From Escherichia coli (lineage in GTDB: Bacteria; Pseudomonadota; Gammaproteobacteria; Enterobacterales; Enterobacteriaceae): a stretch of DNA of 64,000 nt. The DNA is taken from the NCBI RefSeq assembly GCF_048403405.1, contig NZ_CP183129.1; one strand, given 5' to 3'. Both the position numbers and the translations under genes were made by a program. The notes under the pieces were generated by a model. The model was not told the DNA's origin, did not search any database, and saw only the letters and a list, made by a program, of their open reading frames with translations. Shown here piece after piece: positions 32,703-37,776 of the stretch (position 1 is its first letter; each line of letters opens with the position of its first letter).

Positions 32703-33893
32703 TTAATTGCTGTTAACCGAGGTGACCAGATTTGCCAGGTATTTATCGGTAATACGCTGGCGCAGGGTCAGGTTTTCGAGAGGAGGCACCGGTGTATAGT
32801 CGTAGTCGATATACAGTTTTCCGGCCTTGAGGGTTTCCGCATCGTTGGATTCTTCGCTGAACCAGCAGGTCGCATCCACGATATAGCCGTTTGTTTTCAG
32901 CTCACGGAATTTGGCATTGATACCGTCAACGATGTCGCGAATCAGCGTTGCGGTGATGGGCTTGTCCACCGCCCACATGTGCGCCTCAGCCATCGTGTCG
33001 GCCAGCACCTGCGCGGTGCGGGTGTAGTTTTCAAAGAGGAACAGCGGGTCATCAGAGCAGGTACGGTTACCCCAGAAGCGGAAACCGTCGCGGCGAATCA
33101 GCGTAGTGACGCCTGACTCGTTAAGCAGGTCAGCATCGGTGCCGGACTCCTGCAAATCCCAGAATACAGATGCACTGATGCCGGTAACACCGTTCACCCC
33201 AACGTTGGACAGCGTTTTATGCCAGCCCTGCTCCTGGTCGATTTTAGCGCGCAGCCCCAGCGCACGGGCAGTGGCATACGCGGTGGCGGTGGTACTGGTG
33301 ACCGTATCCCATGCGAGGAAATCCGGCCAGATGACCATCAGCTCACGCTGGCTGAAATTCTGGCGGTAGGCTTTCACCTCAGAAATGGTTTTACAGCCCC
33401 ATGCGCTGATATACCCGAAAGCGCGCAGCTTCTGACAGACTGATGCCAGTGCAACAGCCACCTCTTTGGTATCCAGTCCCGGCACGCCGAGAATACGCGG
33501 TTTAACACCGGTTACCGACTCCGCCGCCAGCAGGGCTTTCAGTCCGGTGTACTGACCGTTTTCGTCGGTGGTACCGATGATATTGGAAACGGTCTGCGCA
33601 AGTTTCGTTTCTTCGTCGTCGCCGGTGCCGTCTTCCACGCGCACAACAACGGTGACCGGTTTTGACTGGTCAGCGATGGCCTGTAACGACGCCGCCAGCG
33701 TGCCTTTTTTACCGGCCTTTGCAATTGCGCTCTGCACATTGGTAATCAGCACCGGTTTATTGAGGGGGAAGGTTTCCGCATCTGCATCGCTGGCCGTGCA
33801 GACCATGCCGACAATGGCAGTGGATACGGTGGAAATGACGCGGGTGCCGTCGTTAATCTCCAGCACCTGCACGCCGTGATGATAGTCACTCAT
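32703..33893 (-). CDS. FI: contractile tail sheath protein FI
   Basis: ORF 32703..34007; start placed at ATG 33893 (MSDYHHGVQVLEINDGTR...), 396 aa. Confidence 0.9.
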   Translation of the reverse strand: MSDYHHGVQVLEINDGTRVISTVSTAIVGMVCTASDADAETFPLNKPVLITNVQSAIAKAGKKGTLAASLQAIADQSKPVTVVVRVEDGTGDDEETKLAQTVSNIIGTTDENGQYTGLKALLAAESVTGVKPRILGVPGLDTKEVAVALASVCQKLRAFGYISAWGCKTISEVKAYRQNFSQRELMVIWPDFLAWDTVTSTTATAYATARALGLRAKIDQEQGWHKTLSNVGVNGVTGISASVFWDLQESGTDADLLNESGVTTLIRRDGFRFWGNRTCSDDPLFLFENYTRTAQVLADTMAEAHMWAVDKPITATLIRDIVDGINAKFRELKTNGYIVDATCWFSEESNDAETLKAGKLYIDYDYTPVPPLENLTLRQRITDKYLANLVTSVNSN

Positions 33894-34353
33894 CCGTCTA
33901 ACTCCGTGGTTAATGGGTGAGTGGTATTTTCTGTTGTGCAGAGCATGAGACGCTATTTGACCTGGCTGGTCAGTGGATGAAACAACAGATAAAGAAAAGG
34001 CGGACAATCCGCCCGCCTGTCATGATTTGTACTCACTTATTTCCCGACTGACAATTTACATAGCCAAAACGCTATCAAATCTGACAGTCTGCTTTGAGCG
34101 AGGAGCGGAAGTTAAGGGGCGGTTTAGTATCTAACATGATCTATATGAAATAGTGATTCTTGGCGTATTGCTAATACAACCCCGATTTGATGTAACTCTT
34201 GTCCACTTTCATCTAACTTCCTCTTGTTCAGGTTCATTTTTAACTGCTAATATGCAGTATATAAAGGAACATGGGTTTACCGTTGTAAGATGCTGCTGAA
34301 AGGTAAGCATAATTATATTGTTAGGTGTCTTTTTATTTTTAAAGGCTTTAAAC

Positions 34354-35460
34354 ATGTCTAAAACACGCGATGATTTCAGCTCAAAAACTGTAAGAGCTCT
34401 AGCACTACGGGCTGGTTATAGGTGCTCATTCCCCGGTTGTAATCAGCTTACAGTTGGCCCCAGTGATGAATCCTTAACATCTATCACAAATATTGGGGTA
34501 GCTGCGCACATTCATGCCGCAGCTCCTGGGCCATTAGCAAGACGATATGATCCTAATCAAACACCAGATGAAAGGAAAGATATAAATAATGGCATCTGGA
34601 TGTGTGTTAATCACAGCGTTGAAATTGATAGAGATGAAATTAGATATACAGCAGAAATTCTTAAAGAAATGAAGAAAGCCCACGAAGAAGAGATTAAAAA
34701 AGAGGTGAGCAATGGTTCTTCATCAACCAAACATAATGATTTCATTGCAATAGGTATAGACATTATCGTTTTCGGAGAGCTTACCGGAATCTCAACCAAT
34801 GAGTGGACTATAAAATTTGCAAACTTCTTTACTGGCGATTTATCTAAGTTAATATCTTTCAACGAAAGATTCCACTCCATCCCTACCGAAGAAAAATTTA
34901 TTCTAGTTAATCAACTTGGTGAGGGGCGTTTGTTATCAGCACCAATAAAATTAAATAAATTACCAGATAGCTATGAAGTAATCGTCCCTGTTGAAATAGA
35001 CACTCCGCGCATCAATTGCAATAGCCTCCCAATGGATTTAGATATTTTCACGACAGGCGATTTATTTGTAAATAGTTCTGGTGATATAGCTACGATATCG
35101 GGGTTTGAAGCTTTACCACAAAAAATATATACTTCCCTTTCCACCATTAGAGGTGAGATTTATTCCCATCCAACATTGGGTTCCAGAATAAGACAGTTCT
35201 TCCATGACTTTGAAGGAACAATGTGGCTAGACAAATTAGTTAAATTAGAAGTTATACGCTTATCTTGTATACCAATTTTTGATTCAATCACAAAAAACAA
35301 ATACACTCCATTACATTGTGTAAAAAATGTCAAAAATATTCGGGTGATACCAACTGAATATAAAGATAGCAAATTACCTATTGAGTTCACCCTTGATATT
35401 GAAGGTTTCGGCATCTGGTCCAAAGAAATAAGTGTTTTCTCACCTAAATACGATGAATAA
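34354..35460 (+). CDS. accessory (moron) protein with N-terminal HNH-nuclease-like motif; function unknown
   Basis: ORF 34318..35460 (TTG); probable ATG start 34354 with AAAGG SD. Motif RCSFPGC...AAHIHAAAPG...NNGIWMCVNHSVEID fits the HNH pattern; AT-rich; at the P2 Z/fun variable position. Confidence 0.6.
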   Translation: MSKTRDDFSSKTVRALALRAGYRCSFPGCNQLTVGPSDESLTSITNIGVAAHIHAAAPGPLARRYDPNQTPDERKDINNGIWMCVNHSVEIDRDEIRYTAEILKEMKKAHEEEIKKEVSNGSSSTKHNDFIAIGIDIIVFGELTGISTNEWTIKFANFFTGDLSKLISFNERFHSIPTEEKFILVNQLGEGRLLSAPIKLNKLPDSYEVIVPVEIDTPRINCNSLPMDLDIFTTGDLFVNSSGDIATISGFEALPQKIYTSLSTIRGEIYSHPTLGSRIRQFFHDFEGTMWLDKLVKLEVIRLSCIPIFDSITKNKYTPLHCVKNVKNIRVIPTEYKDSKLPIEFTLDIEGFGIWSKEISVFSPKYDE

Positions 35461-35932
35461 AATTGAAGTTCTTGAACCGCTATATTTGGCTCCGGTATTT
35501 ACTCCGTGAGTGGTATCCTAGGGCCCTGTGCGGAGGATTTCATTGTAATGCTCATACGCTGTAGCCAGGTTCATGTTTCTTCAGCAAGGCCATTTGGGCT
35601 AGTGGCCTGCTCCCCATTGCTCCACACAAAAAATTATTCGTTACGTCCGCTCCTGGCACACAGTAGACATCGAGAGACAGCTTCGAGCGATAATCAGAAG
35701 TTCGCAATTGTCATCACCCAAAAGTTGTTTATAACTTGTAGCAAGGTGCATTGTTCAACGTTGAGTTGGTCAAGTTCAGTTAATGATCGGACGATATCTC
35801 ACTCTGCCCAATAGCACATCTGTTTTACGGGAAGTGAGTTTCAACATCACGAGCTTTGTTAGTAAACATCACTTATTTATTAAGAATATGTTTCATAGAA
35901 CAGGGCCGGAGAACTTAATTTCATATTCTAAA

Positions 35933-35954
35933 AAGTGATGCGCAGACATCACTT
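35933..35954 (-). terminator. hairpin downstream of the 353-aa cargo gene
   Basis: AAGTGATG-cgcaga-CATCACTT about 30 nt after the stop at 35984. Confidence 0.35.
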
Positions 35955-35983
35955 TAAACTTTTTAAAGCGCGAAAACCCTACG

Positions 35984-37045
35984 TCAGAATTTGACAGTAG
36001 GAACGGTTGGCCAGATTCTAGCAATAGACTTAAACATAGTCTCCACAATATATTCGAGAACCTCATCATCAGGCTCTTTCATTAATGCTTTTACTTTATT
36101 TATTCTATCCTGAAGTGAAGGGTGAGATTTTGAAAAACCCCAGTTGTTTTTACCTAACATAGTAACGCTGAATAATGCACAGTATATAGAAAGTCTTCTT
36201 TTCCTGCTCACCAACACACGGTCATACATAGACTCTTCACAGTAATTATCTATATGGTCAAGGATGAATTTATTTGCAAACTCATCACATGAGAACTCTT
36301 CATTATGAGCTTGTTCTTGTGTGAATTCATTCATATCATAACTGGTACCTTCCTGCTGATGAATGATATGTCGGACTTCATGCAAAAATGCCCAAGCAGC
36401 AGCAATAATTGCTAATTCAGCTGTTGCTCTTTTAACTGGTTCGATTTTACTGTCAGGCATGGTGCCAGGTTCAGGAATTCCTATTGGTAGTGGTTTTTCA
36501 TCCGGTACCTCATCTTTAGCCGTGTTTTCAAAAGCGCAGATTAACTGTTCAAAGTTTACGAAGTCTGCCGAACTGAAATCAGCAAGTTCTTCCTGTAGCT
36601 CCTCGAGTAAAACATGTAATTCTGACTCGGTTGAGACTAATGATATTTTCTTTGAGTCAAAAAGATCTAAAATAGAATCCCTTTTATCGATAATGTCTTC
36701 AATTTTTTTATTTTGCTCAGTGTTTATTGCTTCGTAGCCCGCCATTGCAGCAAATGTTCCTATCCAGAACGTGCGCAAAACACGATGATTGAAGCGGATA
36801 AATCGATACATCCCCGCATCAAAAATAAATTTACCGTCTGTATGATTATCGCTATGATTTTGGAAGGTCATGTTAAATTTAGACCAGAACTCATCCAGTT
36901 CATTCTGACGCTCTGGAATAGAGGCTAAAAACATTTTTCTTACGCTGTCCTGAACTGTTTTATCTTCATTATGCTCTTCAAACATTTGCTCACCTATATT
37001 GCTGTTAATTTTATCTAATGATGAACCGAGTGGGTTGTTTACCAA
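35984..37045 (-). CDS. accessory (moron) protein with HEXXH motif (putative zinc metallopeptidase-like); function unknown
   Basis: ORF starts at TTG 37045; more likely ATG 36985 with AGGTGA SD. Motif FLHEVRHIIH; AT-rich; convergent with the HNH gene. Confidence 0.5.
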   Translation of the reverse strand: MVNNPLGSSLDKINSNIGEQMFEEHNEDKTVQDSVRKMFLASIPERQNELDEFWSKFNMTFQNHSDNHTDGKFIFDAGMYRFIRFNHRVLRTFWIGTFAAMAGYEAINTEQNKKIEDIIDKRDSILDLFDSKKISLVSTESELHVLLEELQEELADFSSADFVNFEQLICAFENTAKDEVPDEKPLPIGIPEPGTMPDSKIEPVKRATAELAIIAAAWAFLHEVRHIIHQQEGTSYDMNEFTQEQAHNEEFSCDEFANKFILDHIDNYCEESMYDRVLVSRKRRLSIYCALFSVTMLGKNNWGFSKSHPSLQDRINKVKALMKEPDDEVLEYIVETMFKSIARIWPTVPTVKF

Positions 37046-37248
37046 GCCTCATGTTACATGTTTTTTGCTTTCCGAATATTTAAGCGTTAGAAGCAAGTAG
37101 GAAAAACGTAGAGCAGTTAACCAAGGCTTTCTACAGGCAGATTAACATAACTTGGTCAGGAATGTCCGCTCTTGGCACATAGCGGACTGTCAGATTAGGC
37201 TTTACTCTGTGCTATAGATATGTAAGCTCACACCAGAGATCATACAAC

Positions 37249-37776
37249 TTATTGCGGCATTTCCGGCCATTCGGGATTTGCAGGATCCACACGACTGACC
37301 AGAACGCTGTAGCGTTCCCATGCTTCCAGTCGGCTGCGTTCCTCATCCGTCGCCATATTCAGCCTGACAGCGCGTTCCAGCGGCAAAATCACGGATTCAG
37401 CTTCGGAAAGTAAAGCTGCCTTTTGTGATTCTGCCTGTTGCTCCTGTTCATCTGCCGTATAAATCCGCTTAATCACGGCACCATCCTTAAACATCCATTT
37501 ACCTGAGTCATCAGCACGTCGGTTGGAGGTAATATCAGGAACCTCGACAACGCTGAAACCTTCAGGGTTAAGCGTTGAAGCATCTCTGGTGATGCCGACA
37601 ATTATATTATTCTCGTCGTAAACAATCTTTATCGTGTCTTCCTGAAAATTACTTACTTCCTCATACCAGTTTTTTCCCTCTTCGGACCATAACCAGATAA
37701 CATCAAAATTTTTTGTCAGTTGATATTGGGCAACAGTTTTTGGATTACCCGCAGTAATATTTTTTAAATGCTGCAT
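37249..37776 (-). CDS. G: tail fiber assembly protein G
   Basis: 175-aa ORF; matches P2 G. Confidence 0.88.

Follow-up and report, generated by a model that had tools for sequence, protein, structure and literature searches.

Several described systems resemble, by analogy, the arrangement reported here: MITE-flanked composite units, integron cassette arrays with their attC sites and the pdif modules of Acinetobacter. In these systems, as in the hotspot described below, short imperfect palindromes stand between single genes, n genes go with n+1 palindromes, and the same gene occurs together with its flanking half-sites in unrelated replicons. For phage P2 itself, inverted repeats flanking the Z/fun region were reportedly described by Nilsson, Karlsson and Haggard-Ljungquist in Mol Biol Evol 21:1 of 2004. 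P2 hotspots are reservoirs of defence systems, and the pathway by which these are exchanged was left open (Rousset et al. 2022, PMC9122126). Two kinds of mobile element are relevant for comparison. The first are the IS-derived MITEs of bacteria, such as Correia/NEMIS of Neisseria and ERIC of enterobacteria (PMC3184786, PMC11602168). The second are IS3-family elements of the IS2 type, of ~1340 bp, which have a terminal repeat that starts with TGA and an orfB that closes with the codons for the C-terminus (...HYNE..PH.ALGY...) of their DDE transposase.

Here, we analyse the DNA between two convergent genes of a P2-like prophage of Escherichia coli, contained in a window of 64,000 nucleotides of contig NZ_CP183129.1, the positions of which are used throughout. 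The gap sits in the Z/fun hotspot of the prophage (Table 1) and comprises 523 bp (35461-35983) between ORF2 on the plus strand and ORF1, a Lit homologue, on the minus strand. No annotated feature lies within it, either in RefSeq (PGAP) or in GenBank entry AJ512680 ('P2-EC46 proviral Z-region, ORF1 and ORF2'), to which the 3.2-kb cargo is 99.8% identical. An earlier note, made from the letters of this DNA, had described about 520 bp of non-coding DNA of intermediate GC content between two AT-rich convergent hotspot genes, and both statements hold: the GC content is 42.4% in the gap against 36.5% in ORF2 and 37.4% in Lit. The excess is confined to 35464-35772 (45-48%), and the remainder of the gap has 37%. 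The combination of ORF2 and Lit is rare, being present in five of 5426 complete E. coli genomes, in AJ512680 and in two IMG/VR contigs. All copies of the exact cassette are ~100% identical, so that constraint within the gap was judged only from the more distant loci L011, L012 and L013.

The gap resolves into four parts, namely the end of an insertion sequence, a short junction, a decayed MITE and the 3' flank of Lit. Very probably, it is a non-functional mosaic of mobile-element remains at the seam of two independently acquired single-gene defence cassettes. What each piece consists of, which of the flanking genes it is inherited with, its neutral divergence and the lack of signals of an RNA gene are direct observations; the order of events (IS insertion, deletions, cassette joining) was reconstructed from only four related loci.

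Table 1. Features of the Z/fun hotspot and of the gap between ORF2 and Lit, in window positions.
Feature	Position	Strand	Remarks
Tail sheath gene FI	32703-34007	-	gene on one side of the Z/fun hotspot
FI-side hotspot boundary, half of a short-type MITE, hairpin TCTGCTTTGAGCGAGGAGCGGA	34046-34113	-	arm profile 34086-34113, E=3.3e-4
ORF2, 368 aa	34354-35460	+	N-terminal HNH-type nuclease region and weak gp25/sheath-initiator-like C-terminal part
IS3-family (IS2-like) right-end relic	35464-35575	-	terminal inverted repeat and last ~30 codons of an orfB pseudogene
102-codon ORF, GTG start	35506-35814	+	spans IS relic, MITE and Lit flank; judged spurious
Junction, 27 nt	35576-35602		between IS relic and MITE
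Decayed MITE, 170 nt	35603-35772		terminal repeats and two degenerate arms
Lit 3' flank	35773-35983	-	inherited with the Lit gene
Hairpin, 9-bp perfect stem (AAAGTGATG N6 CATCACTTT)	35932-35955		28 nt after the Lit stop; sole terminator-like site in the gap
ORF1, Lit-family (Peptidase_U49) phage-exclusion protease homologue, 333 aa	35984-36985	-	Pfam, PADLOC, PGAP name
G-side hotspot boundary, short-type MITE, initial ~16 nt of the terminal repeat missing	37140-37230	+	arm profile 37140-37188, E=6.4e-8
Tail-fibre assembly gene G	37249-37776	-	gene on the other side of the Z/fun hotspot

The part adjoining ORF2 consists of a terminal inverted repeat (TGAAGTTCTTGAACCGCTATAT, 35464-35485) and the remnant of an orfB pseudogene (35488-35575, minus strand), with a GC content of 48%. 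A sensitive nucleotide search matched 35488-35575 at 76-79% identity to many IS3-family transposase genes of E. coli and plasmids, always at their 3' end. Its best intact relative, an IS carried by a plasmid of C. freundii (L007), is 84% identical over 88 nt; the proteins of this IS score highest with the IS2 TnpB/TnpA models of NCBIfam and also pass the model for the IS3 family. Alignment with the intact copies L003 and L007 matched the IS terminus TGATCTTGACCCGCCATAT to 35464-35485 at 15 of 19 positions and revealed that the relic has lost 37 bp of subterminal DNA. A 1-nt deletion and stop codons interrupt the transposase frame; the manually repaired peptide matched Pfam rve_3, the C-terminal portion of the integrase core domain, with E=6e-4 and 20 bits, below the cut-off of 26.5. 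The degraded third gene that the earlier note had considered for the gap is supported, but what remains is the end of an IS3-family transposase gene and not of a defence gene.

Like IS2-type elements, the relic has a terminal repeat starting with TGA, in keeping with the 5'-TG start of the IS3 family, and the orfB 3' end that follows it. Unlike them, it retains only ~110 bp, with one end, ~30 orfB codons and none of the rest of the DDE (rve) orfA/orfB pair: the left end has been lost at this locus, as have orfA and the catalytic domain. Judged by these features, it is a fossil and not an element capable of transposition. The same relic, with the same junction, follows the stop codon of the ORF2 homologues in L011 (84% amino acid identity) and L012 (81%). 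Nucleotide identity over 35400-35571 is 83% and 77%, respectively, and identity of the relic compares with that of third codon positions as 73.9% vs 78.5% (L011) and 66.7% vs 68.2% (L012). The relic thus diverges about as third codon positions do, which marks it as a neutral passenger of ORF2. In L010 the relic is absent, and a plain hairpin-T terminator follows the ORF2 homologue in its place.

ORF2 itself was matched by PADLOC to PDC-M68A (9.6e-24), to CBASS HNH effectors and to the N-terminus of SduA; its match to Pfam Sheath_initiator (9e-4) is below cut-off. The protein is full-length and was not truncated by the IS insertion; its 275 homologues of 360-390 aa cover 98-100% of the query. 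The family is widespread and mostly unnamed, its members in Proteobacteria and metagenomes reaching down to ~40% identity, and ORF2 looks like an uncharacterised single-gene defence candidate. As to its start, the mechanical list of open reading frames gives a TTG at 34318 (380 aa), and GenBank and PGAP give the ATG at 34354 (368 aa), in agreement with the lengths of the homologues. An 82% identical homologue lies next to replication gene A in the other variable region of P2 (L010, 3-2172), without MITE arms, so that the same defence gene is present in both P2 hotspots. Upstream of this homologue and in the same orientation is an unrelated 333-aa gene; it was considered as a possible Lit homologue and is not one. 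In L011, a contig of 1.9 kb, a direct repeat of ~45 nt (gatgcttcagaaa...gtctcaggaaaa.aaactgg; 1-60 and 1810-1870) flanks the ORF2 homologue outside the MITE pieces.

At the other end of the gap, the flank downstream of Lit has a different history. ORF1 is recognised by Pfam PF10463 (27.3 bits, cut-off 23.9) and by PADLOC as Lit (9.4e-10). From 37100 down to 35685 the window is 90% identical to positions 4886-6300 of L013, an island outside P2, and this match covers ~115 bp upstream and ~300 bp downstream of Lit. The downstream portion (35685-35983) is 85.9% identical, with a single indel of 1 nt, compared with 86.5% for the third codon positions of the Lit coding sequence, so that this flank, too, is neutral. 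A further Lit homologue, in L014, is entirely without the flank, and searches found no match to 35690-35990 in plasmids and none to the Lit 3' flank in other E. coli DNA. The islands in which these two homologues reside are of the defence type. The one in L013 (592-4470) encodes a 546-aa reverse transcriptase, a 251-aa gene product and an SLFN/AlbA_2 protein, and the one in L014 (6352-10482) an OLD-like TOPRIM/AAA_15-AAA_21 ATPase together with a P4-type integrase next to the tmRNA gene.

Within the Lit flank lies the hairpin listed in Table 1, which is kept in L013 with one change in the loop. Three of its nine stem pairs are G-C, and on the Lit strand the T-run TTTTTAG lies partly inside the stem. 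It is likely to be a rather weak intrinsic terminator of Lit, and it would also be the only terminator-like site available for read-through from ORF2. Pairing was also noticed between 35461-35472 and 35910-35921, a 12-nt inverted repeat that was considered as the two ends of one element. This was rejected, since L013 has the right copy within its Lit flank although it has no IS2-like relic.

The earlier note had also raised the possibility of a small RNA, which here would regulate ORF2 or Lit or serve as an antitoxin to one of them. RNA partners are common among toxic abortive-infection effectors, 523 bp is a long distance between convergent genes, and the 300 bp next to Lit were inherited with Lit in L013. 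The signals of an RNA gene, that is its own promoter and terminator, a conserved structure or membership in a described family, were however not found. Rfam gave no family for the gap at E<=10, no sigma-70-like promoter was detected in it, and its two strands fold no better than shuffled sequences (whole-gap z=-0.74 and +0.38). Moreover, the Lit flank evolves at the synonymous rate, the Lit homologue in L014 does without it, and the ORF2 homologue in L010 is followed by a tail of 50 bp that holds the terminator only. A scan of the gap for tRNA and tmRNA found none, and ToxI-like tandem repeats or retron-like a1/a2 repeats were represented in the gap by short chance pairs only, in a cassette without a reverse transcriptase. 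A small RNA in the gap is therefore unsupported on present sequence comparisons, and we consider it very improbable. This does not concern transcripts that may run across the gap, for example antisense read-through between the convergent genes.

Even less credible is a third protein encoded by the gap, for which the 102-codon frame is the foremost candidate, with other short frames besides. The frame is indeed open for 102 codons, and the note's description of it as weak and without a Shine-Dalgarno sequence proved accurate: it starts with GTG, and the bases before this codon (ggtatttactcc) contain no such motif. It has no match in Pfam or PADLOC, was called neither by PGAP nor by the depositors of AJ512680, and overlaps the transposase pseudogene on the opposite strand. 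In addition, it crosses three segments of different ancestry, each of which is found elsewhere without the others. We judge it to be a chance frame across three pieces of unrelated origin.

The centre of the gap links its two sides. The left arm of the decayed MITE (35603-35669) consists of a terminal repeat (TGGCCTGCTCCCCATTGCT) and a degenerate hairpin, and the inverted right arm (35676-35772) of a degenerate hairpin and a terminal repeat on the minus strand (TGACCAACTCAACGTTGAA). Compared with the consensus TGACCTGCTCCCCGTTGAT, the two repeats have three and five mismatches in 19 positions. A profile built from 15 arms recognised the left arm at 35604-35669 with E=3.6e-10 and the right arm at 35676-35702 weakly (E=0.45). 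The right arm is very degenerate (14 of 19 positions in its terminal repeat) and was recognised mainly by its collinearity with L013 and with full copies. The element folds no better than shuffled sequences (z=+0.79), whereas the intact copy in L096, from C. freundii, forms a single long hairpin of -59.4 kcal/mol (z=-6.6).

Several other islands (L004, L005, L006 and L014) have intergenic DNA, without annotation, that matches window positions 35581-35701. The left arm resembles the G-side MITE of another P2 Z-hotspot, in L004: 35581-35663 is 76% identical to L004 2501-2584, starting ~22 nt before the MITE terminus, and most of the junction (35581-35602, TCAGCAAG...CTAG) is thereby common to the flank of the L004 element. 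The right arm is collinear with L013. With the left arm linked to ORF2 and the right arm to Lit, the seam falls inside the MITE. In substance, this is the scar of cassette exchange that the earlier note had thought possible: the left part of the gap is inherited with ORF2 (L011, L012), the right part with Lit (L013), and the decayed MITE holds the seam between them. Two other interpretations of the central sequence were tried. The core ...TCCGCTCCTGGCAC... was considered as the remnant of a tRNA 3' end or att site, which was rejected for want of a T-arm. Segment 2 was considered as a further part of the IS2-like transposase pseudogene, since its minus-strand translation (VPGADVTNNFLCG...) looked conserved; this was rejected, as its substitutions have no third-position bias, it occurs in no annotated transposase, and it corresponds to an IS end plus 5' leader.

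The better-preserved MITE copy in L014, used as query, revealed related sequence at 1977 unannotated places in 1491 of the 5426 E. coli genomes. Among the neighbours of these places are restriction-modification systems, relics of IS elements and the edge of the pks island. Copies are sharp-ended, with the inverted terminal sequence TGACCTGCTCCCCGTTGAT and a hairpin CCGCT-N8-10-AGCGG in each arm. A scan of one genome per species for the terminal sequence yielded, in Enterobacterales, two classes with the same terminal 23 nt: an IS3-family IS of 1.19-1.22 kb, in which orfA begins 72 nt from the end, and a short element of 149-181 nt. These shared ends identify the short element as a MITE of the longer IS, which is found in 494 of the 5426 E. 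coli genomes and whose left end is identical to the consensus TGACCTGCTCCCCGTTGATTAAC. Intact MITE copies measure 149 nt (L096), 150 nt (L087), 174 nt (L098) and 181 nt (L015), and copies were also found in Citrobacter, Klebsiella, Kosakonia, Atlantibacter, Pantoea, Lonsdalea, Silvania and Superficieibacter.

The family thus shares with the IS-derived MITEs described before a size of 150-180 nt without transposase coding capacity, an intergenic location in dispersed multiple copies, terminal inverted repeats that are the same as in an autonomous IS, a distribution across Enterobacterales and, in intact copies, folding into one long hairpin. It differs from them in that both ends are of the left-end type of the IS and that target-site duplication, which would be proof of MITE transposition, is inconsistent, with GAT duplicated at L015/L016 and no duplication seen at L087, L096, L098 or the window copy, which is moreover decayed. 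To our knowledge, its sequence is unrelated to ERIC. Rfam, applied at a permissive threshold to six loci with intact copies, returned nothing relevant. We found no name for the family in the searchable literature, and a text search of papers for the terminal repeat gave nothing relevant.

The insertion at L015/L016 (3502-3682) is present in two E. coli strains; left halves and flanks are 98% identical, but the right halves differ greatly, which looks like a swap of the right arm by recombination at the central hairpin. About 500 nt from this full copy, beside a type I restriction-modification system, the Rfam families c4-a1b1 and isrK match L015 2937-3011 below their cut-offs, with 40.9 bits (46.7 required) and 42.3 bits (50 required), respectively.

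Pieces of the same MITE family also form the boundaries of the Z/fun hotspot in the window (Table 1). The G-side piece ends 18 nt from the stop codon of G and is homologous to L004 2527-2620 and to a copy in Kosakonia (L045). AJ512680 annotates inverted repeats on both sides of the cargo, and these contain the boundary MITE halves: its right repeat corresponds to window 34020-34110, with the FI-side half, and its left repeat to 37161-37273, with the G-side half. Nothing is annotated inside the cargo of that entry, and it records neither the internal MITE nor the link to an IS3-family IS, nor the copies that accompany Lit and ORF2 outside P2. Boundary pieces occur likewise in P2, Wphi, L-413C and eight further hotspots, and their terminal-repeat ends face the cargo.

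Each of the four distinct two-gene cargos examined has a further MITE that separates its two genes, namely those of the window, of L004 (1458-1531, between an M48 protease and AbiGi), of L108/L113 (4504-4624) and of L112 (4230-4380, between a DUF3800 protein and a hypothetical protein). The seven single-gene cargos (P2, Wphi, L-413C, L109, L110, L114 and L115) have boundary pieces only and no internal MITE; in L114 only the G-side piece was detected. Outside P2, arms bracket the Lit homologues of L013 (4794-4845 and 6213-6308) and L014 (4804-4851 and 6105-6215), and the ORF2 homologue of L011 has hairpin pieces on both sides. The arm profile is nearly silent on shuffled controls, with one match at E<=1 in 640 kb.

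It is tempting to propose that the MITE copies are working joints, in other words that defence genes travel as cassettes bounded by MITE arms and are inserted, lost or swapped within MITEs, in which case the gap would be the linker of a two-cassette array. This proposal, to which we give distinctly less than even chances, draws on the arrangement of boundary and internal copies (P2, Wphi, L-413C, L004, L108-L115 and the window) and on the arm-bracketed homologues outside P2. Homology breakpoints at the MITE centre, at 35685 for the window and L013 and at the right halves for L015 and L016, point in the same direction. The route of recombination could be homologous, could involve the related IS3-family transposase or could depend on an unknown hairpin-specific recombinase.

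Several observations speak against it. The sample is small, comprising 12 distinct hand-picked hotspots. Most boundary copies have no terminal repeat, and a transposase could therefore not use them now. Arms of 65-100 nt with 75-90% identity are a poor substrate for RecA. Neither an empty site nor a circular intermediate was seen; small P2-like phages, searched for a Z site without cargo, had single-gene cargos only. L111, with one gene and a 52-aa HNH fragment, has no internal MITE, and arms are absent from the second P2 hotspot, the one beside gene A (L010). MITEs may also merely pile up in the only non-essential intergenic DNA that is available. The likeness to integron and pdif arrays is one of architecture only; the hotspot contains no integrase gene, and no Xer-type 28-bp site is evident. 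In its broader form, the same idea would hold that the Z/fun hotspot and defence genes of other enterobacterial islands are cassettes delimited by one IS3-derived MITE family, which are joined, exchanged and stacked at its hairpin-bearing centre; we put this forward as a tentative generalisation that may well prove wrong.

The reading of the gap as a neutral mosaic at the seam of two cassettes suggests the following history. An IS3-family (IS2-like) IS once inserted behind ORF2, its transposase gene running antisense to that gene; ~110 bp of it survive, and its right terminus lies 3 bases past the stop codon. The 170-nt MITE, now past folding, is a transposase-less derivative of a different IS3-family IS, of 1.2 kb. 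ORF2, the IS relic and the MITE may once have formed one cassette. A Lit cassette with MITE arms of its own, as in L013, would then have been joined to it by recombination within the MITE, and this joining would have left the chimeric element seen here, with an L004-like left arm and an L013-collinear right arm. We would assign to the present-day gap a role limited to transcription termination and insulation between the convergent genes.

In this respect the gap itself is ordinary, and the part worth following is the MITE family around the defence cassettes. For the prophage, the analysis means that ORF2, with its HNH and gp25-like parts, and the Lit-type protease are separate single-gene systems, with no hidden third component between them; for cloning, they can be treated separately, provided that the hairpin at 35932-35955 is kept. 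If the MITE pattern holds at scale, it would offer a testable account of how phage defence hotspots gain and swap their cargo, as well as a sequence tag for cassette boundaries that could lead to new single-gene defence candidates in enterobacterial genomes. Should MITE copies indeed act as joints, they would provide a concrete mechanism for hotspot turnover.
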